Numbered from the stretch's first letter, positions 30,611-43,285 are shown. The stretch is DNA of 64,000 nt from an uncultured delta proteobacterium (GCA_963790475.1 CAWBOS010000013.1:288001-352000), one strand, 5' to 3'. The notes: generated by a model not told the origin, from the letters alone. Numbers and translations: made by a program.

Positions 30611-30801
30611 TTTCACCGCAAAGCCGCAAAGATCGCAGAGAGAATTATTTTTGTTCAATCCTCCGAGAGGTGGGATTGAACAAACCAGATCTGGCCTCCG
30701 GCCAAACAATTACCCTCAGGGTAGCGAAGGTTATTGATTGTCCCGCGGGACAATCAATAAAAAATTTCCTTCTTTGCACCCTTTGGGACTTTGCGGTGAA
30801 A
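30611..30801. repeat. ~190-bp nested palindromic (MITE/REP-like) element
   Basis: 13-bp terminal IR TTTCACCGCAAAG/CTTTGCGGTGAAA enclosing hairpins TTTGTTCAATCC..GGATTGAACAAA and TTATTGATTGTCCC-GC-GGGACAATCAATAA. Confidence 0.75.
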
Positions 30802-30818
30802 GCAGTCTATTATCTACT

Positions 30819-32173
30819 TGTTAAATGCCATGACATCGTGAACTAAATAATGTGCCATAACATCGTGAACAACGTTCTGTGACAATCGAATAGCCTCTCT
30901 GTCACAATCATGGACACCAAAACCAAAATGGAGGTGTTCATGATTGATGAGATTCAGCAACAAAGGACTTGGGCCGTACAGCGTTTTATTAACGGGGAGA
31001 AACCGGAATCCATTTGTGTCTCCCTGAGTTGCTCGAAAACGTGGTTGTACAAGTGGGTTAACCGTTTTTTAGAAGGCGATCCTTTCTGGGTAGAAAGTCG
31101 GTCCCAGCGACCTCTGATCACTCCGACACGTACCCCGCCGGAGATTGAAGAAATCGTCAAGTTGGTGCGTCTGAACCTTTACAACCGGGACTTGTTCTGC
31201 GGCGCCCAAGCCATCCACTGGGAAATGGAAGAACTCAACGTCCAACCGTTGCCTTCCATTCGGACTATCGACCGGATTCTCAGTCGCCAGGGTCTGACCC
31301 ATCGTCGAACCGGCCGCTATGAATCCAAGGGCACAGCCTATCCGAAGCTGCCCTCCTTGGTGCCGAATCAAACCCATCAGGCGGATTGGGTCGGTCCGTG
31401 TTATTTAACAGGACCCTTACGCTTCTATAGCCTCAATGTGGTCGATCTGGCTACGGGCCGCTGTGGGGTACATCCATCCGTCTCCAAAGCGGGCCAGAAT
31501 GTCATAGATGCCCTCTGGGCTATTTGGAAACGTCTGGGGATACCGGATAACCTCCAAGTGGATAATGAGATGTCTTTTTTCGGTAGTCCCATCCATCCTC
31601 GCGGTATGGGGCCACTGATCCGGTTGTGTCTGCATCACGGAGTCGAACCGTGGTTCATCCCCATGGCCGAACCCTGGCGTAATGGGGTAGTGGAGAAATT
31701 CAATGACCATTACGAACAACGGTTTCTTGCCAAAGATCCTTATGGCCACGCCGACGGATCTGCTATCCGGGTCACTGGCCTACGAGCAGAGGCACAATAG
31801 CACCTATCGTTACAGTAAACTGGGCGGCAAAACGCCACTGAAAGCCCTGGAGGTTGCTAAGCGAAGGCTACGTTTCCCTAAAAAAGAGCAAGCCGCCTCG
31901 GCATCGGCTCAAAAAACCTGAACTCGGACGATATCATCTTGTCCGCTTTATCCGGAGCAACCTGAAGTTGAACATCTTCGGTGAAATATTTCGTATGCCT
32001 CCCGAGTTGGAATATCAATATGTAGTGGCTACTATCGATGTCAAAGAACAAAAACTAAAACTCTACTTGGATAAAACCGAACAGTTGGTGTTCAACTACA
32101 AATTACGTTGAGAAACCCTTTGTCCACGATGTCATGGCATGAAAATCTGTCCACGATGTCGTGGCATTCATCA
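30819..32173 (+). mobile_element. Insertion sequence, IS481-like DDE family, 1355 bp
   Basis: TG...CA ends, 6-bp direct repeat TCTACT at 30813-30818 and 32174-32179, two 18-bp inverted subterminal motifs per end. Confidence 0.88.
30910..32111 (+). CDS. Transposase (HTH + integrase-core DDE) with two +1 frameshifts (~31734, ~31890)
   Basis: SKTWLYKWVNRF HTH, QADWVG (D), QVDNEMSF (D), NGVVEKFN (E); three overlapping frames join into one protein. Confidence 0.85.
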
Positions 32174-32626: not shown

Positions 32627-32657
32627 CTTTTAAAGTCACAATTTGTGACTTGAAAAG
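32627..32657. repeat. Non-coding palindrome (15-bp arms, 1 mismatch) related to the ORF6N/Bro-N coding palindromes
   Basis: CTTTTAAAGTCACAA-T-TTGTGACTTGAAAAG; reads LKSQFVT-stop in one frame. Confidence 0.8.
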
Positions 32658-32726
32658 AGGAGAACTGTTTAAGGTTACTAAAGATAGGGTCTCAACTGAA
32701 TGAAATAAACAATAAGGGGAAAATAG

Positions 32727-33275
32727 ATGGAATCTTTGGTTCCGACGGAAGTTATTGAGAGCAGAATCTTATTGATTCGAAGGCAGAAGGTCATGCTGGA
32801 TTCCGACTTGGCGGAGCTTTATGGGGTAACAACGAAAAGACTGAATGAACAAGTTAAGCGGAATCGTGGTCGTTTTCCTGAGGCTTTTATGTTTCAACTG
32901 AACTCCGAGGAAAAAGCCCAGGTGGTCGCAAATTGCGACCACCTGGCCAAGCTTAAGTTTTCGGCCACCCTCCCTTATGCTTTCACTGAACATGGGGCTC
33001 TCATGGTTGCCAGTATACTTAATACCCCCCGAGCTATTGAAATTAGTATCTTCGTCGTGAAAGCCTTCGTTAAACTCCGGGAGATGATCTCCACCAATAA
33101 AGATTTAGCCCGGCGGTTGGATGATCTGGAGAAAAAATATGACGGCCAATTCCAAGTGGTCTTCGAGGCTATCCGGGCCCTAATGGCTCCGCCGGTTAAG
33201 CCTAAACGAAAAATCGGCTTTGATCTGAAGGAGAAGCAGGCCGGATATGGCAGGAGGGGAACGAGAAAAAAATAA
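32727..33275 (+). CDS. ORF6N (KilA-N-like) domain DNA-binding protein, paralogue 1
   Basis: IRRQKVMLDSDLAELYGV.TKRLNEQVKRN..RFP..FMFQL, PYAFTEHG, KRKIGF tail. Confidence 0.9.
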   Translation: MESLVPTEVIESRILLIRRQKVMLDSDLAELYGVTTKRLNEQVKRNRGRFPEAFMFQLNSEEKAQVVANCDHLAKLKFSATLPYAFTEHGALMVASILNTPRAIEISIFVVKAFVKLREMISTNKDLARRLDDLEKKYDGQFQVVFEAIRALMAPPVKPKRKIGFDLKEKQAGYGRRGTRKK

Positions 33276-33415
33276 GGTGCTAATTTTCATCAATTTCACC
33301 ATGATCTGGCAATGTCATTCCAGACTCGATTCGGAATCCAGTATGTGAATCCACCCAAGGAAGGATGCTTCAACCGGAGCAATGAAAATTGGAATTCGAT
33401 ATCTTGAAAGGAGAA

Positions 33416-34045
33416 ATGAACACTATGGGAAAGGTGGTAAAGGGTAAACGGAAGGGAGCTGTTCCAAAAGCAAGACCAAAGGTAAAAAAAGATGAAAACC
33501 AGGACAGGGTTTACCAGCTCAGGATATCACTCATCGGCAGCAAGCCGGAGATTTGGAGACGAATCCTGGTCTCGGGCAATACCACCTTGGCCAAGCTTCA
33601 CGGAATCATACAGATACTCATCGGTTGGGAGGATGACCATCTCCATGAATTTGTTATTGCCGGGGTGCATTACACTATGCCTTTGCCTGATGATCTGGTC
33701 CCGTCTCAGGATGAAAAACGATTTCGTCTTTATGAGGTAGCCGCTAAGGAAGGCCTGAAATTCCTCTACACCTATGACTTTGGTGATGACTGGGAGCATG
33801 AGATCATGGTCGATAAAATCCTGGAAGAAGACAAACGGTTCGTTGGAAAGCCTGTCTGCATAGGGGGTGAGAATGCCGGCCCTCCCGAGGATATCGGCGG
33901 CATATTAGGCTACCTTGAAACGTTGAAAGCCATCAAGAATCCCCGCCATCCGGAACACGAGGAGTTGAAGGAATGGCTCGGGGAGTTCGATCCCAAGGCT
34001 TTTGATATCGATTTGGTAAACCGAATTCTGTCGAGAATGAGATGA
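33416..34045 (+). CDS. Plasmid pRiA4b ORF-3 family protein
   Basis: YQLRISL....P.IWRRILV, LH..IQ...GW...[25 protein letters not shown]. Confidence 0.88.
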
Positions 34046-34055
34046 GGAGGTTTTA

Positions 34056-34610
34056 ATGAAAGAATCCGATATGGCACCTGCTGAGATTGTCGCAAAAAAA
34101 ATATTCCTTATCCGCGGGCAGAGAGTCCTGTTAAGCTCCTCCTTAGCGGAACTGTACGGGGTTGAACCGCGGGTGTTGATGCAGGCCGTAAAAAGAAATC
34201 TTGATCGGTTTCCTTCGGATTTCATGTTTCAATTATCCATAGAAGAGTTCCAAAACTTGAAATCACAGATTGTGATTTCAAGTTGGGGCGGATTGCGCCG
34301 GGCAAGACCTTATGCATTCACTGAACAAGGGGTGGCTATGTTATCCAGTGTCCTTAACAGTCCAAGGGCTATTAAGGTTAACATTACGATCATGCGCGTT
34401 TTTGTCCGGCTTCGCCAAATGATGGCCTCCCAAAGGGCCCTGTCCGGCAAGCTGGCCGAATTGGAAGAACGCATCCAGGATCACGATGAACAAATTACAG
34501 ACATTTTTAAAGCCATACGTCAGCTCATGGCACCGCCACTGAAACCCAAACGAAAAATCGGCTTTGATCTGAAGCAGAAACAGGCGAGGTATGGAAAAAA
34601 GAAAGGGTGA
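34056..34610 (+). CDS. ORF6N (KilA-N-like) domain DNA-binding protein, paralogue 2
   Basis: IRGQRVLL...[47 protein letters not shown]. Confidence 0.9.
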
Positions 34611-34630
34611 AAGGGAAAGAGGAATCATCA

Positions 34631-34819
34631 ATGACGCCTGAAAAATATTACGCCCACAGCCTGCCCGGCAGGCCCCCTGCCGAATGGCAGCCGCTGGAAA
34701 CGCATCTGAAAAATGTGGCTGAACTGGCCTGGGGATTTGCTGACTGTTTTGGGACGGGGGAGTGGGAGTATCTGGCGGGGTTGTAGCATGATTTGGGGAA
34801 GTATTCATTTGATTTTTAG
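34631..34819 (+). pseudogene. cas3: Remnant 5' end of a different cas3 (HD nuclease domain)
   Basis: Translates as MTPEKYYAHSLPGRPPAEWQPLETHLKNVAELAWGFADCFGTGEWEYLAGL*HDLGKYSFDF*; YAHS, HL..VA and HDLGKYS are Cas3 HD motifs; not in ORF track. Confidence 0.85.
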
Positions 34820-34856
34820 GAAATGTCTATAAAATAGTTGGAAGGCAGAATTATTC

Positions 34857-37208
34857 ATGAGATTTATCGCAAGATTTAATGAATCTGGTGGAGAACAGAC
34901 CCTCGTCAATCATCTGACCGGAGTCAGCACGAAAATTCACGTTTTGACCGACAATGATTTTTTCGGCGAGATTACTGGAATGCTTCATGACATAGGTAAG
35001 TACTCGGTCGCGTTTCAAGAACACGTTCGATCCAATTCGGAGGAGAATAAACCAGACCATTCGTCTGCCGGAGCGCAATTGCTTCTAAGCCTATTAAAAA
35101 AGCGAGCTGAGGAAATTGGTGAAGAAGAAATTAAACGGATTGCCCCGCTAATGGGACGCATGATTGCCCATTGCGTTGCAGGGCACCATTCGGGGCTGTT
35201 AAATGGATCTTCGGTTGGAGATGAAACCTCTTTAGAACGCCGGCTGACCAAGATATTGGAGCCGTATCTAAGTAATATCGAGCCGGACATTTCGCAAAGA
35301 TTAGATTCAATGGTCAATTCACTTTTGTCTGAAGAAAACCTCGATTATGTCTGTCGTTGGATTGATTCTGACGGTAATGTATCCGGGCGAGATGCATATT
35401 CGCTGCAATTCGCCATCAGAATTCTTTTCAGCGCTCTCGTTGATGCAGACCGACTCGATTCAGAGCAGGCCGGGAACCCCGACCAGTGGAAGATGCGTAT
35501 GTCGATAAAGAAAGATACGTTCCCTGTCTTGCTGAAAAAGATCGAAGATCATTTGAGCACACTTCCCTCGAATGGGACTGTGAACAAGGTGCGCAGAGAA
35601 GTCTCAGAGCAGTGCAAGGACGCTGCATCGGTGGAGCCGGGTTTTTTTGATTTAACCGTTCCAACAGGAGGGGGCAAAACATTTGCCAGTCTGCGATTCG
35701 CCCTTCACCATGCAATTAAACATGGGATGCGCAGGGTCATATATGTAATGCCCTACACAACCATTATTGATCAAAATGCGGATGAGTTCCGGAAGGTATT
35801 AGATCGAGACAAAGCTAGCATCAACGTACTTGAACACCATAGCAACATGGAACCTGAAAAGGAAACTCAAGAAAGTGAATTACTGACTGACAATTGGGAT
35901 AGCCCGGTTGTTGTAACCACGAGTGTACAATTCTTTGAGTCTTTCTATGCGGCCAAGTCAAGCCGATGCAGACGGCTGAATGCTATCAGGCAGGCAGTAA
36001 TTATTCTTGATGAGGCCCAGACAGTCCCTGTGCGCTACTTGAAGGCCGTAACTTGGGCGCTGGAAGAGCTTGTCACCAATCACAGTTGTTCAGTTGTCTT
36101 CTGTACGGCGACACAGCCGTTGCTGGACTCAAAACGTCTGGACGGAGAGGCACTGGATAATCATAGGATCGGTGTTACGAACGTCCGGCCAATAATTACA
36201 GAGCCTCAGAAATATTTTGTTGGACTGAGCCGTGTCAGGGTCCGTTCGGTTGATTCCAAGGAACCTCTCTGCGTCTCTGATATTGCGGCTATGGTAATGG
36301 AAAAGGCACAGGCAAGGAAAAGCGTACTATGCGTTCTTAATACAAAGAGCAATGCCAAGGCAATCTTCAAAGAAATGAACAATGGGACTGTTGTGAACAG
36401 ACTCTGGCACCTTTCAACTGGTATGTGTCCCCAGCATCGGAAAGATGTAATCGAGATTGTCAGATTGCTAACGGCCTATTCCCGCAAAACAGGAACGAAA
36501 GCTCCTATTGTGATCAGCACGCAACTTGTTGAGGCTGGAGTGAACCTCGATTTTGACGTTGTATTCCGAGCTATGGCAGGAATCGATTCTATTGCGCAGG
36601 CGGCAGGGCGGTGTAATCGCGAAGGCAGCATGCCTGCCCTTGGGGAAGTCTATTATTTCAGGGCGGAAGAGGATCTTCGCCACCTCCGAGATATCGCTGA
36701 AGCAAAACGTATAGGAATCGATACCCTTTCTGCCCTTGAGGGCAATACCGCGCTTACACAGGCCGAGAAAGATCCCATCGGTCTCATGGCGGTAGAGGAG
36801 TACTTTCAGAGGCTATACTGGAGCCAAGCTTCCGAGATGGATGAAAAAGGGATTGTTGCCCGTCTCACGTCACCGCGAAGAATAGAGGAGAGTGCCTATG
36901 TGCCTTTTACCACTATTGCCGATGACTTTCGATTCATAGAGAATGACACAGTCTCAATTCTGGTGCCCTATGGCCAGGTAGGGAAGTCGTTGTGTGACAA
37001 GCTAATCAAGGGCGGAATGTTGGGGTTTGATGAATACAAGACGGCAGGCAGATACTCTGTACAGGTATTCAGAGACACGTTGCCAAAGTTTAAACCACTT
37101 GTTTCCCCAACGAAAAGCAGCTGGCTTGTGCTGGCAGACAGTAAACATTACAACGAAACGGGCCTTCTTGGGCCAAATGAACTTTCAGTGGAGGACTATA
37201 TAGTATGA
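34857..37208 (+). CDS. cas3: CRISPR-associated helicase/nuclease Cas3 (HD + SF2)
   Basis: LHDIGK, HHSGL, LVDADRLD, VPTGGGKT, DEAQ, CTATQP, QAAGRCNREG. Confidence 0.95.
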   Translation: MRFIARFNESGGEQTLVNHLTGVSTKIHVLTDNDFFGEITGMLHDIGKYSVAFQEHVRSNSEENKPDHSSAGAQLLLSLLKKRAEEIGEEEIKRIAPLMGRMIAHCVAGHHSGLLNGSSVGDETSLERRLTKILEPYLSNIEPDISQRLDSMVNSLLSEENLDYVCRWIDSDGNVSGRDAYSLQFAIRILFSALVDADRLDSEQAGNPDQWKMRMSIKKDTFPVLLKKIEDHLSTLPSNGTVNKVRREVSEQCKDAASVEPGFFDLTVPTGGGKTFASLRFALHHAIKHGMRRVIYVMPYTTIIDQNADEFRKVLDRDKASINVLEHHSNMEPEKETQESELLTDNWDSPVVVTTSVQFFESFYAAKSSRCRRLNAIRQAVIILDEAQTVPVRYLKAVTWALEELVTNHSCSVVFCTATQPLLDSKRLDGEALDNHRIGVTNVRPIITEPQKYFVGLSRVRVRSVDSKEPLCVSDIAAMVMEKAQARKSVLCVLNTKSNAKAIFKEMNNGTVVNRLWHLSTGMCPQHRKDVIEIVRLLTAYSRKTGTKAPIVISTQLVEAGVNLDFDVVFRAMAGIDSIAQAAGRCNREGSMPALGEVYYFRAEEDLRHLRDIAEAKRIGIDTLSALEGNTALTQAEKDPIGLMAVEEYFQRLYWSQASEMDEKGIVARLTSPRRIEESAYVPFTTIADDFRFIENDTVSILVPYGQVGKSLCDKLIKGGMLGFDEYKTAGRYSVQVFRDTLPKFKPLVSPTKSSWLVLADSKHYNETGLLGPNELSVEDYIV

Positions 37209-37939
37209 AAAGAAAATCACCACCATTAGTTTTCACTGTTCGTGCTGAACGGGCGCTGTTTACCAGACAGGACCTTCGGATAGAGCGCTTCACGTATCCA
37301 GTACCTACGTTTGGTGCTCTTGCAGGAGTTCTGCGGTCGATCTACGCGAAACCCGCTTTTTACTGGGTACCGTCGAAGGTACTTATCTTGCAACCCATTA
37401 GTTACCAGAATATCCAAGTCAATGAGGTGAAAGATGCTGTTATCACGCAACGCCCATTCATTGCACCGGATCGGCGTGTCCAGAAAATGCAGACATATCT
37501 AAATAACGTTCATTATGTTGTTGAGGCGCACTTTGAGTGGTCTGGCAAAAACCCTGAAGACGAGAACCTCGGCAAGCACCTTGACATTTTTCGTCGATCC
37601 TTAGAAGTAGGAGGCCGTCGTGATGTTTTCTTAGGATTGAGGGAATGTACTGCTGTCGCAGAACCAATTGATGCAAAGTTCGATACGTTCAAGACGGAGG
37701 ACAGATTCAGTGCTGTCGTGGAAGAACAACGTGGGGAATGGAGGAAAATGGGACAAACAGGCTTAACAATGGATGTAGGCATTATGTTTTACGGTTGGGA
37801 GTGGGGTTCCGCTGGGGATGGGACAGATACACCTATCTTTTTTCATGCGATGGTGCAAAACGGTGTTCTTGAATACCCTCATCCAGATGATACTACCAAT
37901 CTCATACACCAAAAATTTGAAAGGAGGGCAGCGCAGTGA
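37205..37939 (+). CDS. cas5: Type I-C Cas5 (Cas5d), divergent
   Basis: ALFTR....ER.TYPVPT, NEVK, V.YVVEAHF, FLGLREC; position after cas3. Confidence 0.85.
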   Translation: MKRKSPPLVFTVRAERALFTRQDLRIERFTYPVPTFGALAGVLRSIYAKPAFYWVPSKVLILQPISYQNIQVNEVKDAVITQRPFIAPDRRVQKMQTYLNNVHYVVEAHFEWSGKNPEDENLGKHLDIFRRSLEVGGRRDVFLGLRECTAVAEPIDAKFDTFKTEDRFSAVVEEQRGEWRKMGQTGLTMDVGIMFYGWEWGSAGDGTDTPIFFHAMVQNGVLEYPHPDDTTNLIHQKFERRAAQ

Positions 37940-39995
37940 TTGCTGAACTCGTCAAGCAATACGACACGCTTAAGAGATGCAATGCTGAAGTGCCAGACCC
38001 GTATTTCAAACAACTGGAGGTCTGGGTAGAGATTATTTTGAAGTCTGATGACTCTTTCTACGTAAACTGGATTGGCAAACCAAAAGAAACGCCGAAGGAT
38101 AAGAAACCTACGATGAAGGAAGAAGGCGATACAGATGTGAATTGCCCCGTCACAGAAAATTCAACCTGCCGGTCCAGCGGGAACGATTCTCCACATGGTC
38201 TGGTGGATAATGCTATGTGGATTTTCGGTAAGTTCGCAACTGAAAAACAGAAGCAGAAATCGCAAACGGTGCCCAGAAAACTAGCCAAAGGAAAACAGAG
38301 CAAGGATAAAATTCCCTCTGATGAAGCCAGACGACAAGCCTATTTGAGTCAAATAAAAGCCTTTTATGATTATAAGCCCGATGTGCTCGGAGAGGTTAAG
38401 ACAATTTATGATTGCCTTTCCTCTGACGCTAAACGCAACGAACTATGGATAGCCATTGAGAAGGAACTGAAAGACAAAATTATTGATTGGAAGGGGGGAA
38501 GCTGTTTGAGAAAGACCAGCATAAGTGGCAGGTAACCGCCTCAAAGGCGAATATCCGGTGGGTAATCCAAAGTACCGGTGAATCCGGCAAGCCAGTAAAT
38601 GTGCTGGAGAATGTGAAAAAGGAATGGAAAGCCTTTCAGGAGAGCAAGAATGAATGGTGGATTACTAGCTTAGTAGATGGTCAGCGGAAATTAGCCCGAA
38701 TACTCCATCCTAGGGTTGGGGGAGCCAGTCTCGTCTCGTTCAACAATGCGGCAACATATTGTGGTCATTTAAGCCCTGAGTATAGAGGGAAACCTGGCAA
38801 GAAAAAAGAAAAAGATGGTGGCAAAGAAAAGAAGCGCCAAAAAAGTCGTCAAGGAGCTAATAATGGTAATGAAAAAGAGGAAACCGATGGTAGTGCTCTT
38901 CCTGCTCAGGTTGGATTTGAAGAGGCCGAGAAATACTCGAAGGCTCTTGACTGGCTAATAGAAAAATCGTCAGTCAGGTTTGGCGGCGATTCAGTTAATT
39001 GTATCTGGGTTGACCAAGGACAATCGGATGTCCAAGCGTTGGACTACGGTGCTTATGAGATTGTTAAACCACAGAATGAAAAGAGCATTTTTTCTAAAGG
39101 AAAGGCCAAAGGAGGCAAAGGACAAGTTCTGGCGGATAGCGGCGATTTGCTCAAAGCTTTACAGCGGTTTAGGAGCGGTCAAGAAGCTGGTTACCGTGAC
39201 AAACGGTTTTACTTGCTTTCGCTCCTCTTACGGAGAAAGGGTCGGCATGCAGTCCTTGGCAGCTACGTGGGCACTATGGCCCTTCTCGATGACAATGCCA
39301 ACCAGTTCGTCAGTCACACAAAGATAATGATTCCTCCGCGGTATCTTAACAATAAAGATGAAGCCCGTGAGTTCTGTCCTACATTGATGGATATTCTCTC
39401 TGCGGCGGGGGTCAAGTCTGAAAAAAAACAGCGACTGGTATGGGACCGTGAGGTCATTGAAGTAATTGTCACAGGTCGATCTCTGCCTGTGGATTTATGC
39501 CGGTTGGTACTACAGAAGGCCATTAAGGATAAACACTTAGAACGGTCAGAAAAGAAACGTTCAGAATACTTGGCACTGCTTGCTACTGCGGCAGGATGTG
39601 CCAGACACTATCTAACCGCAATCAGAAAGGAGGGATACGGAATGGGACTTGATACAAACATAAAAGATACCGGTTATCTCACAGGGCGATTATATGCTTT
39701 ATGCGAGAATATCCAGAAGCGGGGGAGGAGTTGGGGTCCAACTCTATCGGACAAACTGTTCTCTGCTGCTATCGATATGCCAAGGCAAACGCTGGTACAG
39801 CTTTACAAGAACTGCCTTTGTTACGAGGTATATAAGGCAGACCGAGAGTGGTTTGCGGAGATATTCGACAAGTTAAAACTGAACGACGGTGATTGCGGTG
39901 AAGGGGAAGTAATGCCCGAGACCGGCGTAGACCAATTTGCATTTATGCTGGGGTACTGGCACCAGCGTGGCGAACCTGCAAAGGACAAACAATAA
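37936..39995 (+). CDS. cas8c: Type I-C large subunit Cas8c (Csd1), divergent, split at G6 tract 38493-38498
   Basis: CRSSG, ARILHP, ASLVSFN, AEKYSKALDWL, GYLTGRLYALCENIQ, FMLGYWHQ; a seventh G joins ORFs 37936-38535 and 38487-39995. Confidence 0.82.
39642..39995 (+). CDS. cas11: Cas11c small subunit, internally translated in-frame from cas8c 3' end
   Basis: AAGGAGG at 39627-39633, ATG 8 nt later, MGLDTNIKDTGYLTGRLYA; matches known I-C internal start arrangement. Confidence 0.75.
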   Translation: MGLDTNIKDTGYLTGRLYALCENIQKRGRSWGPTLSDKLFSAAIDMPRQTLVQLYKNCLCYEVYKADREWFAEIFDKLKLNDGDCGEGEVMPETGVDQFAFMLGYWHQRGEPAKDKQ

Positions 39996-40059
39996 AAGTG
40001 GGGACGATAGTTCTACCAGAGCACAGACAAGAGAATAAAAAAAGATAAGGAGAACGACT

Positions 40060-41082
40060 ATGACCACAAATGCTTTGAAAAAACCAATCGAAAGCCGTGT
40101 TGATTTTGTTCTTGTTTTCAGCGTTGACAATGCCAATCCGAATGGTGATCCCGGCTACGATAACCGTCCACGGATGGATGGATATACCGGACACGGCTTA
40201 GTTACTGACGTGTGTCTAAAAAGGAAGATAAGAAATAGGATCGAGGCAATTAAGGAGCTTCAAAGCGGCTACGATATATGGGTTCGTTCAGGAACATATC
40301 TGAGAGAAACTATTGGAGATACACTTGATAAGGTAAGAAAGGAAGAAGAATACAAGAAACTAAAAACAGACAATGAAAAAGCCCAGTACGAGAAACGTCG
40401 CCTGTGTGAGCAGTTCTTTGACATAAGGGCTTTTGGTGGTGTCCTGACAAGTGACTCCGATTCCGAGGGCGAAGAAGGCCAGGCTGCGACCACGCAGAAA
40501 GCCAAATCCAAAGTCAGCCAGGTTCGCGGGCCAGTAAGCATTCAGTATGCCAAGAGCATCACTCCTATTGTCGTGGAAGACGACGAAATAACTCGAGTCT
40601 GCCCAACAAAATTCGAACCTAAGAAACCGGACAAACAGACAGAAATGGGGCGTAAGAAACGAATTCCCTTTGCGGTATATGTTGCCAAAGGGTCTGTCAG
40701 TGCCAGGCTCGCTGAAGGTGACAAGGGGACGGGATTTTCTATTGAGGATTTGAATTTGTTAAAAGAAGCAACGAAAACCCTGTTCCTAAATGACGAAAGC
40801 ACAGCCAGACCTATTGGATCAATGATTATACAGAAAGGAGTGTTCTTTACCCATAAAGATAAAGATGGCGACGAGGCTGTTCACAAAACACTGGAGCGGC
40901 TCAAGGTAGAATTCACGGGCAAAGAGGAAAACGGCGTCAAAGTCGAGAGATCGGAAAAGGCCAGAGATATGGGATGCTACAAAATATCCCTCGACAAAGA
41001 AAACCTGCCTAAAGATGATAATGGACAGCCAAAGATCAAGATAGAAGAGTTCGGCGAGTATGCTGCCGTGAATGTTTCGTGA
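40060..41082 (+). CDS. cas7: Type I-C Cas7 (Csd2)
   Basis: NANPNGDP..DNRPRMD, VTDVCLKRKIRN, FFDIRAFGGV, QVRGPV, EMGRK. Confidence 0.93.
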   Translation: MTTNALKKPIESRVDFVLVFSVDNANPNGDPGYDNRPRMDGYTGHGLVTDVCLKRKIRNRIEAIKELQSGYDIWVRSGTYLRETIGDTLDKVRKEEEYKKLKTDNEKAQYEKRRLCEQFFDIRAFGGVLTSDSDSEGEEGQAATTQKAKSKVSQVRGPVSIQYAKSITPIVVEDDEITRVCPTKFEPKKPDKQTEMGRKKRIPFAVYVAKGSVSARLAEGDKGTGFSIEDLNLLKEATKTLFLNDESTARPIGSMIIQKGVFFTHKDKDGDEAVHKTLERLKVEFTGKEENGVKVERSEKARDMGCYKISLDKENLPKDDNGQPKIKIEEFGEYAAVNVS

Positions 41083-41111
41083 TGCAGATGAACGCCACCC
41101 CACCCTATCAC

Positions 41112-41168
41112 CCCCCCCACGGCGGCTATCAGAACTCACAGTCCTACCAGATGGCCGAGATTGTTTAT
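41112..41168 (+). pseudogene. 5' fragment of a four-helix-bundle gene
   Basis: PPHGGYQNSQSYQMAEIVY vs PPHGGYQDLQSYQMSEIAY (42074-42130): 15/19 identical. Confidence 0.8.
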
Positions 41169-41182
41169 AAGGAGATCAGGGA

Positions 41183-42016
41183 ATGGAAACAAACATAGCC
41201 GTTTTTAGAGGTAAGGAAATCAGGAAGACGCTTCATAAGAATGAATGGTGGTTTTCCGTTTCCGATGTGGTTGCCGCGTTAACGGATAGCGCAGATCCAA
41301 AGCAATATATAAAGAAAATGAGACAGCGCGATCCGGAACTTAGCTCCTACTGGGGTACAATTTGTACCCCCCTTGAAATTACTGCCCTAGACGGAAAAAT
41401 GAGGGAGACAAATTGTGCCAATACCGAAGGTATCTTCCGAATTATTCAGTCCATCCCCTCCCCCAAGGCGGAGCCTTTCAAACGCTGGCTGGCCAAGGTG
41501 GGCTATGAGCGGGTGCAGGAAATAGAAGACCCGGAACTGGGGACTAAGAGGACCCGGGCCTTATACAAGGCCAAGGGCTATTCTGATGACTGGATCGAGA
41601 AACGGATGCGGGGTATTGCCATCCGGGAAGAGCTTACGGATGAGTGGAAAAAGAGGGAAGTGGGGCAAGAAAAAGAATACGCCATCCTGACCTCTGAGAT
41701 CGCTAAGGCCGCTTTCGGAGTAACACCGGGAGAACATAAGAAAATAAAGGGACTAAAACGGGAGAATCTCAGAGACCACATGAATGATCTCGAATTGATT
41801 TTCTCCATGTTAGGTGAAGCGGCCACGACGGAGATAACACGGGTTGATGATGCCAAAGGATTTCAGGAAAGCAAGCGAGCCGCCCGCAAGGGCGGGGGGG
41901 TGGCCGGGAAGGCCAGAGAAGACCTGGAGCGAAAAACCCTTAAAAAAGTAGTTTCATCAGAGAACTATCTGAGTATTCCGCAGAAAAGACAAAAGCAGTT
42001 AAAAGAAAAGGGATAA
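41183..42016 (+). CDS. Bro-N domain DNA-binding (antirepressor-like) protein
   Basis: F.GKEIRK....EWWFSVSDVV..LTDS, RIIQSIPSPKAEPFKRWLA.VG.ER, ENLRDHM. Confidence 0.88.
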   Translation: METNIAVFRGKEIRKTLHKNEWWFSVSDVVAALTDSADPKQYIKKMRQRDPELSSYWGTICTPLEITALDGKMRETNCANTEGIFRIIQSIPSPKAEPFKRWLAKVGYERVQEIEDPELGTKRTRALYKAKGYSDDWIEKRMRGIAIREELTDEWKKREVGQEKEYAILTSEIAKAAFGVTPGEHKKIKGLKRENLRDHMNDLELIFSMLGEAATTEITRVDDAKGFQESKRAARKGGGVAGKAREDLERKTLKKVVSSENYLSIPQKRQKQLKEKG

Positions 42017-42025
42017 GGGGCCGTA

Positions 42026-42613
42026 ATGGATCGTCCTAATAACAAGCAAGGCGAACAGGCATCTAAGCTCATCCCGCCTCATGGCGGCTATCAGGACCTG
42101 CAGTCTTATCAGATGTCCGAGATTGCCTATGACGCCACCGTGGTGTTTTGCGACCGGTTTATCAGTCCCCGCTCGCGCACCCATGACCAGATGGTCCAGG
42201 CGGCCAGGAGCGGCAAGCAGAATATTGCCGAGGGCAGTATGGCCTCCGGCACCTCCAAGAAAACCGAACTCAAACTCATCGGCGTGGCCCGGGCCAGTTT
42301 GGAAGAATTGCTGCTTGATTTCAAGGACTTTTTGCGCCAGAAGGGGCTGCCCCTTTGGGGGAAGGATCACCCCAAAGCCAAAGAGGTTAGAGGGTTGTGC
42401 TACCGAAAAGATAGGTCTTATGAGACCTATAGGACCTATATTGAAAACCAAAGCCCGGAGGTGGCCGCCAACACCATGATTTGCCTGATCCACCAGACCA
42501 ACTATCTTTTGGACCAGCAACTGCGGGCCTTGGAAAAAGAGTTTGTTGAAGAGGGCGGTTTCACAGAGAGACTTTATCGCCTGCGCTCGCAGGCGCGGGA
42601 AAGAAAGAAATAG
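42026..42613 (+). CDS. Four-helix-bundle protein (23S IVP/Avd-like fold) with C-terminal suffix domain
   Basis: DQMVQAARSGKQNIAEGS, ELKL..VARASLEELL.D, LLDQQLRALE.EF..EGGFTERLY. Confidence 0.85.
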   Translation: MDRPNNKQGEQASKLIPPHGGYQDLQSYQMSEIAYDATVVFCDRFISPRSRTHDQMVQAARSGKQNIAEGSMASGTSKKTELKLIGVARASLEELLLDFKDFLRQKGLPLWGKDHPKAKEVRGLCYRKDRSYETYRTYIENQSPEVAANTMICLIHQTNYLLDQQLRALEKEFVEEGGFTERLYRLRSQARERKK

Positions 42614-42634: not shown

Positions 42635-43285
42635 ATGACTGATAGGACCTATACTCACACTGAGGAAGATTTGATCATGCTGTCCGCATTGCAGCATTAT
42701 GCTTTTTGTCCCCGGCAGTGTGCGCTGATTCATGTGGAGCAGGTTTGGGTGGAGAGCGGTCTGACCGCCCAGGGCCGGATTATGCACGAGAAGGTTCACC
42801 AGGAAGGCAATGAAACTCGTGGCCCGGTGAAGATTGCCCGAGGGGTGCCGCTCCGGAGCTTGAGACTGGAGCTGGTGGGTGTTGCCGATGTGATTGAATT
42901 CCACAAGATGAACAAAGGGGCCTGGCAGCCCTTTCCGGTGGAATACAAGCGAGGGAAGCCAAAAGCCGACCATTGCGACCTGATCCAACTTTGTGCCCAG
43001 GCTATTTGCCTGGAAGAAATGCTGGCCGTTGCGGTTCCCTGTGGGGCCTTGTTCTATGGCCGGACCCGCAGGCGTCTGGATGTGACCTTCGATGACGATC
43101 TTCGCCATGAAACGGAAGAGACGGCACGAAAGGCCCATGAACTGATCGCTTCCGGAATAACCCCGCCGCCGGTTTATGAAAAGCGCTGTGAAAGTTGTTC
43201 CCTGATCGGAGAGTGTCTACCGAAAAAAATTCAAAAGAAGGTTTCGGTGAAAAGTTATTTAACCCGCATGATGGACTCGCCATGA
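42635..43285 (+). CDS. cas4: Cas4 exonuclease
   Basis: SALQHYAFCPRQCALIH, G.ADVIEF, PVEYKRG, QLCAQAICLEEM, C.SCSL...C. Confidence 0.96.
   Translation: MTDRTYTHTEEDLIMLSALQHYAFCPRQCALIHVEQVWVESGLTAQGRIMHEKVHQEGNETRGPVKIARGVPLRSLRLELVGVADVIEFHKMNKGAWQPFPVEYKRGKPKADHCDLIQLCAQAICLEEMLAVAVPCGALFYGRTRRRLDVTFDDDLRHETEETARKAHELIASGITPPPVYEKRCESCSLIGECLPKKIQKKVSVKSYLTRMMDSP

Follow-up and report, generated by a model that had tools for sequence, protein, structure and literature searches.

A perfect palindrome at a fixed coding position of ORF6N genes is a candidate operator of the proteins that they encode

Genes of the ORF6N family carry a single perfect palindrome of 25-27 bases at a fixed spot in their coding sequence, and Bro-N genes carry it in a weaker form. 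The palindrome is probably an operator to which the gene's own product binds. Judging from the sequences, such an embedded operator is the best-supported reading, backed by the two-fold symmetry of the site, by non-coding copies upstream of the genes and by covariation between the bases of the site and residues of the putative recognition helix. Our literature search found no published description of ORF6N genes bearing their own palindromic site.

The window analyzed here, a 64-kb stretch of DNA from an uncultured delta proteobacterium, contains two ORF6N genes and a Bro-N gene, the latter sitting as an insertion between cas7 and cas4 (Table 1). The two ORF6N genes scored 105.9 and 113 bits against PF10543 (gathering score, 27.8), and the Bro-N gene scored 52 bits against PF02498 (gathering score, 25.6). 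The ORF6N-2 protein is 48% identical to ORF6N-1 (BLASTP), and both have a putative recognition helix, TKRLNEQVKRN in ORF6N-1 and a stretch of 11 residues in ORF6N-2. The C-terminal half of ORF6N-1 is coiled-coil-like, ends with the residues KPKRKIGF and matched coiled-coil chains only in a search of the PDB, in which no solved structural relative of ORF6N was found by sequence. Homology of this Bro-N set to ORF6N was undetectable by profile comparison (probability 0.3).

Table 1. Genes and palindromes of the locus, with positions counted from the first letter of the window.
Feature	Coordinates	Strand	Description
Non-coding palindrome	32627-32657		CTTTTAAAGTCACAA-T-TTGTGACTTGAAAAG; 15-bp arms with one A-G mismatch, inner 9 perfect; 11/12 pairs
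ORF6N-1, 182 aa	32727-33275	+	Pfam PF10543, E 1.3e-30; PADLOC PDC-S05, E 4e-54
Internal palindrome 1	32918-32946		CCAGGTGGTCGCAA-A-TTGCGACCACCTGG; perfect 14-bp arms, 1-nt centre; half-site GGTCGCAA
PRiA4_ORF3-like gene, between both ORF6N genes	33389-34045	+	Pfam PF07929, E 8.6e-63
ORF6N-2, 184 aa	34056-34610	+	Pfam PF10543, E 8.2e-33; PADLOC PDC-S05, E 2.6e-55
Internal palindrome 2	34254-34284		AACTTGAAATCACA-GAT-TGTGATTTCAAGTT; perfect 14-bp arms, 3-nt centre; half-site AATCACA
Bro-N gene, 277 aa	41183-42016	+	Pfam PF02498, E 1.2e-13; PADLOC PDC-S13, E 5.4e-119
Bro-N internal palindrome	41349-41373		10/12 pairs; perfect part GGGGTACAA-T-TTGTACCCC (41352-41370), 9-bp arms, encodes WGTICTP

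All four palindromes reported by the first-pass annotation were found in the sequence where it had placed them, and the centre of the Bro-N palindrome, CAA-W-TTG, is that of the ORF6N palindromes. As single-stranded DNA, the four fold with energies of -7.6 to -16.9 kcal/mol (z from -4.0 to -7.6), and none of 200 shuffles folded equally well. Only 9 distinct perfect palindromes with arms of at least 9 and a loop of at most 6 are present in the whole window, and the 6.34-Mb genome holds 36 with arms of at least 12 and a loop of at most 3, of which 7 are of the ORF6N type. No further palindrome of this type was found elsewhere in the window, and the suggestion that the sites possibly regulate the cas operon finds no support. 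Metagenome contigs from other organisms accumulate over internal palindrome 2 and nowhere else along the gene.

The palindrome is a property of the family rather than of this locus. Among 124 distinct ORF6N homologues from many phyla, 122 show 8 or more complementary pairs out of 12 around a centre at one fixed codon position, and in 101 of the 124 this centre lies 61 or 63 nt past the R of the RFPxDF motif. The core, TC-N-CAA-W-TTG-N-GA, is invariant, and the arms covary out to 12-13 bp. Covariation of the arms, which the first-pass annotation proposed to test, is borne out by comparison with synonymous-codon shuffles: the best perfect arm averages 10.0 in the 124 genes versus 4.9 in the shuffles, with 61 genes reaching the floor of p <= 0.005, and in 120 sequences 92.2% of the cells are paired versus 67.9% in shuffles (0 of 500 as high) and 33-42% with slid partners. 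In the same 120 sequences, both sides vary at 11 of the 13 palindrome pairs. Between 2 and 12 bp from the centre, complementarity is 0.85-1.0, and it drops at 13-14 bp, in both codon registers (n = 49 and 73); it has the same extent in 30 non-coding upstream sites that were chosen by the core alone. Across 108 related pairs, the density of substitutions is 0.057 in the palindrome versus 0.138 in its flanks, so that the palindrome evolves 2.4 times slower. Gene fragments and intact genes have similarly perfect palindromes (11.35 vs 11.23 of 12 pairs). Furthermore, relatives of the Bro-N gene have palindromes at the same codons as the gene in the window.

Among ORF6N genes, the same palindromic DNA is read in two codon registers around one shared centre, as the first-pass annotation had noted for this locus, and the arrangement proved far more widespread than the locus suggested. 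Internal palindrome 1 encodes QVVANCDHL in the in-frame antisense register, and internal palindrome 2 encodes a 10-residue peptide in the other one. The difference in peptide between the ORF6N subfamilies results from a change of register over the same DNA, and the encoded amino acids covary by the antisense code. Codon choice follows the palindrome: one pair is either Thr ACA/Cys TGT (27 genes) or Ala GCA/Cys TGC (21) in 48 of 49 genes, and another is Val GTC/Asp GAC (35) or Ile ATC/Asp GAT (9) in 44 of 49. Nearly all of 120 relatives of ORF6N-1 have the peptide (E/Q)VVANCDHL, and most of 120 relatives of ORF6N-2 have NLKSQIV(I/T)SS. Thus, the description of the palindromes as encoding a variable segment fits Bro-N, in which this is the most variable stretch of the protein, but not ORF6N, in which the peptide is near-constant within a subfamily.

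Two bases of the internal palindrome, located 4 and 7 bp from its centre, are predicted by four residues of the putative helix-turn-helix (HTH) recognition helix, at positions -12, -11, -8 and -7. These correspond to helix positions n, n+1, n+4 and n+5, the usual DNA-facing side of an HTH recognition helix. From residues -11, -8 and -7, the base at 4 bp is predicted in 96 of 99 ORF6N genes of both registers: G with R/E/Q (43/45), A with x/Q/x (46/46) and C with R or K at -8 (7/8). The base at 7 bp tracks residue -12, being G with K in 60 of 66 cases and A with R in 22 of 32. In a second set, composed of loci from the same genome and the same genus, the prediction was right in 40 of 42 cases. 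The mutual information in one class is 0.99, 0.87 and 0.99 bit, with 0.14 in the next best column, and on a tree built without the trait columns all 6 independent, well-supported contrasts agree in direction (p = 0.031). The genes of the window follow the same code: the residues K, R, E and Q of ORF6N-1 call for G at both 7 and 4 bp, those of ORF6N-2 (R, V, Q and A) for A at both positions, and all four bases were found as predicted. The covarying residues lie ~25 codons (~95 nt) upstream of the palindrome, and the columns between do not covary. Of the proposal that each palindrome is an operator whose own peptide recognizes it, the embedded operator is the best-supported part; a recognition role of the palindrome-coded peptide found no support and is not required, since the covarying residues sit in the distant helix and the code is the same in both registers.

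Outside the ORF6N genes, 160 loci contain 37 distinct sites, mostly 50-150 bp 5′ of ORF6N start codons. Of 64 extra sites, 35 lie 250-350 bp 5′ of the internal centre, and shuffled loci yield 1 site in 436 kb. At least one strict upstream site is present in only 32 of 136 ORF6N gene contexts. The two sampled genes without an internal site (L034 and L070) have an upstream site of the helix-predicted type. In only 13 of 25 cases does the type of an upstream site agree with the prediction from the gene next to it. Similarly, the arms of upstream sites agree with the adjacent gene's own palindrome at 7.67 of 13 positions versus 7.05 in shuffled pairings (p = 0.12), and the idea that site and reading head change together finds no support here. 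Several upstream sites are relics of truncated genes. At our locus, the centre of the non-coding palindrome lies 85 bp 5′ of the ORF6N-1 ATG and 290 bp 5′ of internal palindrome 1. One of its frames reads ..VEESQELLKSQFVT and then a stop, which suggests that it derives from an older ORF6N gene of which only the 5′ half is left; it is at the same time an operator-like site. With G at 7 bp and A at 4 bp from the centre, it matches neither ORF6N-1 nor ORF6N-2 and would suit the helix type K/A/Q/A of a paralogue on contig C12. The neighbours of ORF6N genes are typical of repressor modules: a gene for an ImmA/IrrE-type peptidase lies immediately 5′ of an ORF6N gene, and a palindrome precedes both.

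The same symmetry could mark a structural DNA element, that is, a hairpin or cruciform extruded from supercoiled DNA, or from single-stranded DNA during replication or transfer, which is recognized as such or serves as a rearrangement joint for ORF6N genes. The conserved centre would then be the hairpin tip, and the arms would only need to pair. Pairing at every position to 12-13 bp despite variable arm bases, around an invariant centre, is indeed the classic signature of a stem-loop, and with its A/T-rich centre and G/C-rich arms the element forms a strong fold as DNA. Moreover, 9 of 31 partial ORF6N matches start or stop at HMM position 62-63, where the palindrome's last codon lies, the palindrome is a breakpoint of truncated and mosaic gene pieces, fragments keep it perfect, and the genes are clustered in tandem, with 4-11 matches per genome within the genus. 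Nevertheless, we consider this explanation unlikely: on its own it leaves the covariation of the 4- and 7-bp bases with the helix residues unexplained, and none of 55 pairs of closely related intact genes is chimeric at the palindrome. The hairpin or recombination site that the first-pass annotation offered as its other option has some support from the breakpoints and mosaic relics, against which stands the lack of chimeras. The centre lacks the asymmetric spacer of recombinase core sites, and an unsystematic look revealed no recombinase gene alongside the family; a tyrosine recombinase core site in particular was rejected, given a centre of 1-3 nt that is itself symmetric instead of an asymmetric 6-8-bp spacer, as well as the lack of chimeras. 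A structural element would be compatible with an operator if the protein binds the extruded form. It is very improbable that the palindrome is a mutational by-product, in which a peptide with antisense symmetry produces a quasi-palindrome, template switching perfects it and the internal copy is without a function of its own. In the parts consulted of PMC7202029, PMC8794818 and PMC8604942, template switching at quasi-palindromes is described as a known mutational process that makes the arms of inverted repeats alike. The independence of palindrome perfection from an intact gene and the 37 double compensatory versus 66 single-arm changes among related gene pairs would be in line with it. Such a process would not account for a core that is invariant across phyla and two registers, for the same DNA end distance in both registers and in non-coding copies, for the slow evolution relative to the flanks, for the clustering of non-coding copies at one distance 5′ of ORF6N genes or for a covariation with HTH residues that skips the intervening columns; nor would it explain why the long perfect palindromes of the genome are so few and 7 of them belong to this one family.

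Two further explanations concern the transcript and the protein. With an mRNA hairpin acting on translation, stability or processing, or ending antisense transcription, the upstream and internal copies would lie on one shared transcript. On the minus strand, GCTTTTTCCT follows the ORF6N-1 palindrome, and a simple scan calls this palindrome terminator-like; however, 2 terminator-like calls were made in the region versus 2.9 expected, and none on the sense strand of the palindromes. An RNA stem would accept G-U on the sense strand only, but the 112 mismatches comprise 22 G:T and 30 A:C, so that G:T is not in excess, and G-U occupies at most a few cells per pair. Considering also that pairing stays at 98-100% to within 2-3 bp of the centre, although no loop requires this, and that the palindromes survive in gene fragments, an RNA hairpin seems extremely unlikely. 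In Rfam, the palindrome sites had no match at E <= 1. Finally, the covariation between helix and bases might reflect coevolution inside the protein, with the helix packing on the palindrome-coded peptide and the palindrome being kept for another reason. The 4- and 7-bp bases do alter the peptide (Thr/Ala and Val/Ile or, in the other register, Val/Ala and Thr/Ile), and the large helix residues R, E and Q pair with the small Ala, as packing predicts. Yet one code holds in two registers, in which the residue that changes is on one side of the centre or the other and belongs to unrelated peptides, the mirrored base change is synonymous, and the residues concerned are polar or charged, at n, n+1, n+4 and n+5 of a helix that follows an HTH-like turn. 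We regard this explanation as quite improbable; an intraprotein contact is a less likely source of the covariation because the code stays the same although the bases change different peptide positions, or none, depending on the register.

Two features of a dimeric HTH repressor with a palindromic operator are present, a two-fold symmetric site and helix residues that covary with its bases. In the operator reading, ORF6N proteins would be homodimeric HTH regulators. The recognition helix of each monomer (TK-R-LN-E-Q-VKRN in ORF6N-1) would enter the major groove of its half-site and contact the base pairs at 4 and 7 bp from the dyad, and the A/T-rich centre CAA-W-TTG would fall between the two monomers. 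With one copy of the site within the coding sequence of the DNA-binding domain and further copies often upstream of the start codon, the protein might control its own gene by a roadblock or by a loop of ~270 bp from the upstream to the internal site, and paralogues might control one another. Operators of dimeric repressors are seldom perfect over 25-27 bp, and the symmetry seems to be kept by something besides binding, for example, hairpin formation or template switching; the latter, acting at the hairpin, may contribute to the perfection of the arms outside the recognized bases.

Operators within genes have precedents. The auxiliary operators lac O2 in lacZ and gal OI in galE lie within coding regions and, like the ORF6N palindrome, combine a symmetric repressor site in coding sequence with a promoter-proximal site at loop distance. 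Each, however, belongs to one operon in a few species, where it occupies a downstream structural gene, whereas the ORF6N site lies in the codons of the regulator's own DNA-binding domain, is fixed across phyla and dictates the peptide. The 16-bp parS of Bacillus subtilis, which functions in chromosome segregation, lies inside spo0J/parB, with many further copies around the origin; it is thus a palindromic site within the gene of its own DNA-binding protein, as putatively in ORF6N, but parS is not known to be coded in two registers or to keep one codon position throughout a family. In the immunity repressors of temperate phages and mobile elements, such as ImmR/ImmA of ICEBs1, the recognition helix sets operator specificity, as a helix swap between 434 and P22 reportedly showed. 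These are small dimeric HTH proteins with palindromic operators and classes that differ in few helix residues, likenesses that remain putative for ORF6N, and an ImmA/IrrE-type peptidase partner adjoins some copies of both; their operators are intergenic, however, and ORF6N belongs to another fold family. Inverted repeats in the mitochondrial genes of one animal group are likewise perfect, lie in coding genes and encode conserved residues in both arms, a compromise between DNA structure and protein as in ORF6N. They reach 284 bp, occur in many genes and have no assigned binding protein, in contrast to the one 25-27-bp site per gene in a single bacterial gene family that covaries with the encoded protein. 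The upkeep of hairpins and inverted repeats by template switching, as far as the consulted parts of PMC8794818, PMC7202029 and PMC13100816 describe it, also holds arms perfect through concerted double changes; as described there, it is a mutational process and not a function, and it leaves the invariant core, the fixed size and the helix covariation unexplained.

Both ORF6N proteins match PDC-S05 and the Bro-N protein matches PDC-S13, PADLOC models of candidate defence genes. In the portions consulted of a preprint (10.1101/2024.09.26.614923), one PDC-S05 member lowered the plating of T7 and T5 about 1000-fold; this member is described with a Virulence_RhuM domain and is perhaps of another type than ORF6N, and those portions do not mention palindromes. 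Because the site is inside the gene, an ORF6N gene and its predicted operator would be inseparable on transfer between defence islands or mobile elements. The coding sequence would have to accommodate the site, and therefore the peptide would be fixed by the DNA, read in two registers and subject to antisense amino-acid covariation. If the palindrome is indeed an operator, a DNA site dictates part of the sequence of the protein.

All four palindromes that the first-pass annotation had located in two ORF6N genes, in a Bro-N gene and in a non-coding stretch were confirmed in the window sequence. Only 9 distinct perfect palindromes with arms of at least 9 bp and a loop of at most 6 are present in the window, and 7 of the 36 palindromes with arms of at least 12 bp and a loop of at most 3 in the 6.34-Mb genome are of the ORF6N type. 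ORF6N-1 and ORF6N-2, both ORF6N-domain genes, are 48% identical and belong to a set of six full-length ORF6N paralogues in this genome. In five of the six, a perfect palindrome with arms of 13-15 bp occupies the same position; in the sixth, the arms are 12 bp long and contain one mismatch. Fragments of ORF6N genes in the genome also have palindromes, one with 16-bp arms.

Coordinates of the genes and palindromes discussed here (window coordinates, except for the last line, where G000 is the genome of the window and C12 one of its contigs)
Feature	Position	Details
ORF6N-1 gene	32727-33275	
ORF6N-2 gene	34056-34610	
Bro-N gene	41183-42016	
Internal palindrome of ORF6N-1	32918-32946	perfect 14-bp arms
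Internal palindrome of ORF6N-2	34254-34284	perfect 14-bp arms
Bro-N gene palindrome	41352-41370	perfect 9-bp arms
Non-coding palindrome	32627-32657	15-bp arms, one mismatch; centre 85 bp upstream of the ORF6N-1 ATG
ImmA/IrrE-type peptidase (Peptidase_M78) gene directly before an ORF6N gene (locus L192)	G000:C12:903788-905383	family palindrome ~155 bp upstream of the pair

In metagenome contigs from four runs, the palindrome sequence of ORF6N-2 was common to unrelated ORF6N genes. In one of these runs (X3), the summed contig depth over window positions 34248-34324 was 350 on the palindrome compared to ~45 beside it, and many contigs matched 34254-34291 alone before diverging into other ORF6N genes. 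Thus, in this run the palindrome is common to many otherwise diverged genes. Note that the contigs are uninformative on inversions, because a perfect palindrome is identical after inversion. The sequence next to the ORF6N-1 palindrome, read onwards along the minus strand, is GCTTTTTCCT, which is complementary to conserved EEK codons; a simple scan marks the palindrome as terminator-like in this direction, and it could thus stop antisense transcription.

The palindrome is a property of the ORF6N family and extends beyond the window. We sampled 160 loci containing relatives of ORF6N, of which 80 came from genomes across many phyla and the other 80 from viral contigs. In the large majority of the 169 gene hits, one fixed place holds the longest perfect palindrome present anywhere in the gene, and arms of 11-17 bp were found in 72 of the 169. 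After removal of duplicates, 122 of 124 genes had at least 8 of 12 complementary pairs round a centre, and in 101 of the 124 the centre lies 61 or 63 nt past the R of the RFPxDF motif. The comparison with synonymous-codon shuffles proposed in the first-pass annotation revealed palindromy beyond the codon null: the mean best arm in the 124 genes was 10.0, compared to 4.9 in within-gene shuffles, with the lowest attainable p in 61 genes and p <= 0.05 in 81. Furthermore, in a formal pair count over 120 sequences, 92.2% of cells were paired, as against 67.9% in shuffled sequences and 33-42% with slid partners, and both-sided change was found in 11 of 13 pairs.

The core T-C-N-C-A-A-W-T-T-G-N-G-A is near-invariant among ORF6N palindromes, whereas d4, d7, d8, d9, d11 and d12 (dN denoting N bp from the centre) are variable yet complementary. 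Complementarity is 0.85-1.0 over d2-d12, 0.66 at d13, 0.41 at d14 and at background further out, and this limit falls at equal DNA distance in both reading registers. In 49 genes the centre falls on the second codon base and the peptide reads E-V-V-[A/T]-N-C-D-H-L, and in 73 genes the centre falls on the first base and the peptide reads L-[K/R]-S-Q-[I/F]-[V/A]-T-S or a variant. In the 49 genes of the former, in-frame register, mirrored codons are mutual reverse complements: ACA/TGT (27) and GCA/TGC (21) make up 48 of 49, GTC/GAC (35) and ATC/GAT (9) make up 44 of 49, and one position further out the pairs are GTG/CAC (27), CTT/AAG (5), GTT/AAC (3) and CTG/CAG (3), the outermost being GAG/CTC (22) and GAA/TTC (4). 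Thus, the synonymous choice for Cys and Asp tracks the residue across the centre, and amino acids covary across it as well (Val-His, Leu-Lys, Val-Asn and Leu-Gln). The segment had been described as variable in the first-pass annotation; this holds between subfamilies and in Bro-N genes, but within an ORF6N subfamily the peptide is highly conserved.

Judging from its mismatches, the palindrome seems to act as DNA rather than RNA: 22 of 112 mismatches were G:T and 30 were A:C, and a stem in RNA would favour G-U on one strand. Pairing nearly reaches the centre, which a hairpin loop would not need, and an Rfam search of the palindrome sites returned no match. Across 108 related pairs, which are not mutually independent, differences per site amounted to 0.057 in the palindrome and 0.138 in the rest of the gene; the changes within the palindrome were 37 compensatory double, 66 single-arm and 4 other changes.

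For each register, we scanned the protein columns outside the palindrome-coded peptide against the variable bases. For d4, three columns stand far above the rest; counted from the R of the RFPxDF motif they are -11, -8 and -7, with mutual information of 0.99, 0.99 and 0.87 bit in one class (next best column, 0.14) and 1.08, 1.24 and 0.50 bit in the other. Helix residues R, E, Q pair with TCGCAA in 43 of 45 genes; [A/V/T/S], Q, [A/S/Q] pair with TCACAA in 46 of 46, and R or K at -8 with T[T/G]CCAA in 7 of 8. Overall, the d4 base was predicted in 96 of 99 genes of both registers. At d7, G goes with K at residue -12 (60 of 66) and A with R (22 of 32). A second set, from the genome of the window and its genus, fits in 40 of 42 cases, as do all six paralogues of the genome, whose translations were read by eye: ORF6N-1 combines K,R,E,Q with the half-site GGTCGCAA, and ORF6N-2 combines R,V,Q,A with AATCACA. 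On a quick maximum-likelihood tree from which the trait columns were left out, d4 changes at least 33 times, and the helix changes along with it in 6 of 6 independent well-supported contrasts (p = 0.031).

The four residues occupy positions n, n+1, n+4 and n+5 of the helix after an HTH-like turn (LYGV-xT-KRLNEQVKRN), the usual DNA-facing side of a recognition helix, and the pairing of Arg with G and of Gln or Ala with A:T is common in protein-DNA contacts. In addition, the d4-d7 half-sites on either side of the dyad lie approximately one helical turn apart, fitting the expectation for a homodimer. Sequence searches for solved relatives gave coiled-coil or spurious matches alone, and a search of the ESM Atlas gave no usable match.

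Palindromes of the family also occur outside the coding sequence. Within the 160 loci, 119 sites lie inside recognised ORF6N genes and 37 distinct sites outside; shuffled loci contained 1 site in 436 kb. Of 64 extra sites, 35 precede the internal centre by 250-350 bp, and hence the start codon by 50-150 bp, and at least one such upstream site is found in 32 of 136 distinct gene contexts, some having two or three, 31-72 bp apart, and some promoters having two or three of differing types. In thirty upstream sites chosen by the core alone, complementarity is 0.8-0.9 over d7-d11 and at background past d13; since these sites end at a like distance, the size of the element is independent of coding. 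Judged by the d4 base, only 13 of 25 upstream sites were of the type predicted for the adjacent gene, and agreement between the upstream arms and the palindrome inside that gene was at chance level. Upstream sites may thus serve other paralogues or be relics; at two sampled loci (L008 and L229) and at the non-coding window copy, a truncated ORF6N 5' half visibly ends in such a site.

The site upstream of the peptidase-ORF6N operon on C12 has the same 13-bp arms as the palindrome inside a paralogue on contig C6, suggesting a regulatory link between the two, and the upstream site in the window agrees with the helix type of the paralogue on C12, from which we infer a second link. At least six ORF6N genes or fragments lie inside 16 kb of locus L225 (G286:C30:252000-270000); its last gene is preceded by three palindromes of three types within 100 bp (15537, 15574 and 15632), which suggests input from several paralogues. 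The ORF6N genes of loci L034 and L070 are without an internal palindrome at the usual place, and each has an upstream palindrome of the type predicted from its own recognition helix.

Relatives of the Bro-N gene carry palindromes with a CAA-W-TTG centre at the same codons as the window gene. At least 9 of 12 pairs were found in 22 of 30 Bro-N loci of the same phylum, perfect arms of at least 7 and up to 15 in 16 of 28 loci, and a second copy 274 bp upstream in one locus. The synonymous null was exceeded by 30 of 55 distinct viral segments at p <= 0.05, and by 8 of them at p <= 0.01. The arms are mostly shorter than those of ORF6N genes, and the palindrome segment, which also switches register, is the most variable stretch in proteins that are otherwise 70-90% identical. 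As a single query, the window Bro-N protein matched nothing in the viral contigs, whereas an alignment query did. The positions of the ORF6N and Bro-N palindromes are equivalent by analogy only: profile comparison of the two domains detected no homology, so the shared palindrome may be inherited or convergent. The window Bro-N gene and a four-helix-bundle gene, which has a TIGR04258 suffix domain and a weak 23S rRNA-IVP match, are inserted (41183-42613) between cas7 (40060-41082) and cas4 (42635-43285) of the cas operon.

The simplest account of the ORF6N data is that each protein binds the palindrome within its own gene, which would make the palindrome a putative operator. Further sites in promoters would allow self-regulation and cross-regulation, and the internal site would tie regulator and operator inseparably. 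Covariation between helix and base could also arise if the helix packed against the palindrome-coded peptide; this is less likely, because the code stays the same even where the substituted base affects other positions of the peptide, or no position at all. A recombination site, the other option in the first-pass annotation, agrees with the position of breakpoints, given that the last codon of the palindrome (HMM position 62-63) is the start or end of 9 of 31 partial ORF6N matches in the genus, but no recent chimera at the palindrome was found among 55 close pairs of intact genes. The idea that relic copies decay faster than those in intact genes was rejected, as palindromes in gene fragments are equally perfect. 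Since this perfection, over 25-27 bp, exceeds the usual demand of dimer binding and is as high in fragments, it probably owes something to hairpin formation and to template switching.

Between the two registers there are systematic differences in the outer arms (d8-d12), which stay symmetric though their sequence varies. The palindrome-coded peptide with its neighbourhood is the sole part of the protein to show such differences between the arm classes. It is conceivable, if rather improbable, that the palindrome serves as an operator and also encodes a second reading element: the HTH helix would read the inner bases, and the self-encoded peptide the outer arms. A concerted change of both arms, for example by template switching, would then alter the site together with the peptide that reads it, giving rise to a new specificity class at a single stroke. 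The 4-11 paralogues of a genome would thereby make up a network, every gene being labelled with what its product recognises.

Genomes of the genus contain 4-11 ORF6N matches each, and the genes are often clustered beside toxin-antitoxin genes, IS elements and ImmA-like genes. On C6, an HTH_3 + M78 gene and a HigB-like gene lie ahead of another ORF6N gene. From such neighbourhoods, and from the peptidase-ORF6N pair on C12, ORF6N may stand in for an ImmR-type repressor. A control search also returned matches in Bacteroides thetaiotaomicron, Caulobacter vibrioides and Lactococcus lactis. Only 3 relatives of ORF6N-1, all weak, were found among GenBank phage records. PADLOC matched ORF6N-1 and ORF6N-2 to the candidate defence family PDC-S05 and the Bro-N protein to PDC-S13; a preprint reports phage resistance for one PDC-S05 member, described with a RhuM domain (10.1101/2024.09.26.614923). 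These matches, with the type I-C cas operon alongside, make the reading testable in phage-defence assays.

Several further features were observed around these genes. A second, broken cas3 5' end (34622-34810), reading EYLAGL(stop)HDLGKYSFDF(stop), an HD motif with two stop codons, lies between ORF6N-2 and the intact cas3 (34857-37208), which has its own MLHDIGKYSVAFQ motif; it looks like a rearrangement relic at the head of the type I-C operon. The cas8c-like gene (37936-39995) is in two overlapping frames (37936-38535 and 38487-39995), and the frame change near a G run at ~38490-38500 could reflect a frameshift, an assembly error or slippage. At 30731-30760, a spacerless perfect palindrome of 30 bp, TTATTGATTGTCCCGCGGGACAATCAATAA, is located 150 bp ahead of an apparently split transposase gene of rve/HTH type (30910-31800 and 31703-31921); with an identical copy 47 kb off in the genome (G000:C13:271040-271069), it is probably an IS end or operator. 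A repeat with GAATTCTACTCAAATTGGATAGAATAT, of which ~15 copies with conserved flanks are found in the genome (e.g., C10:519292, C12:317997 and C13:134594), looks like a small dispersed element; it has no relation to the ORF6N palindrome, with which its centre agrees by chance.

Few predicted DNA-binding modules are as common in phages, mobile elements and defence islands as the ORF6N and Bro-N domains. Our literature search, covering mostly open-access and few subscription journals, found almost nothing on what they bind, ORF6N in no title or abstract, and no account of the palindrome, the recognition code or any operator for ORF6N. Related known features are intragenic auxiliary operators, parS inside parB and the coding palindromes of nematomorph mitochondria; template-switch upkeep of inverted repeats is a related process. 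If our reading holds, the binding sites of thousands of ORF6N/Bro-N-type proteins would be directly readable from their own genes. A simple recognition code would also be at hand, in which R..EQ goes with G, x..QA with A and R/K at -8 with C at d4, and K or R at residue -12 with G or A, respectively, at d7. Regulatory links of paralogues and defence islands would become predictable. It would also be a clear bacterial case of a DNA site, and not protein function, fixing a stretch of amino acids, so much so that a single place in the fold accepts two unrelated peptides. For genes that often move, an operator inseparable from its regulator by recombination would be a neat design, and a very common, uncharacterised family would gain binding sites that are legible in its gene sequences.
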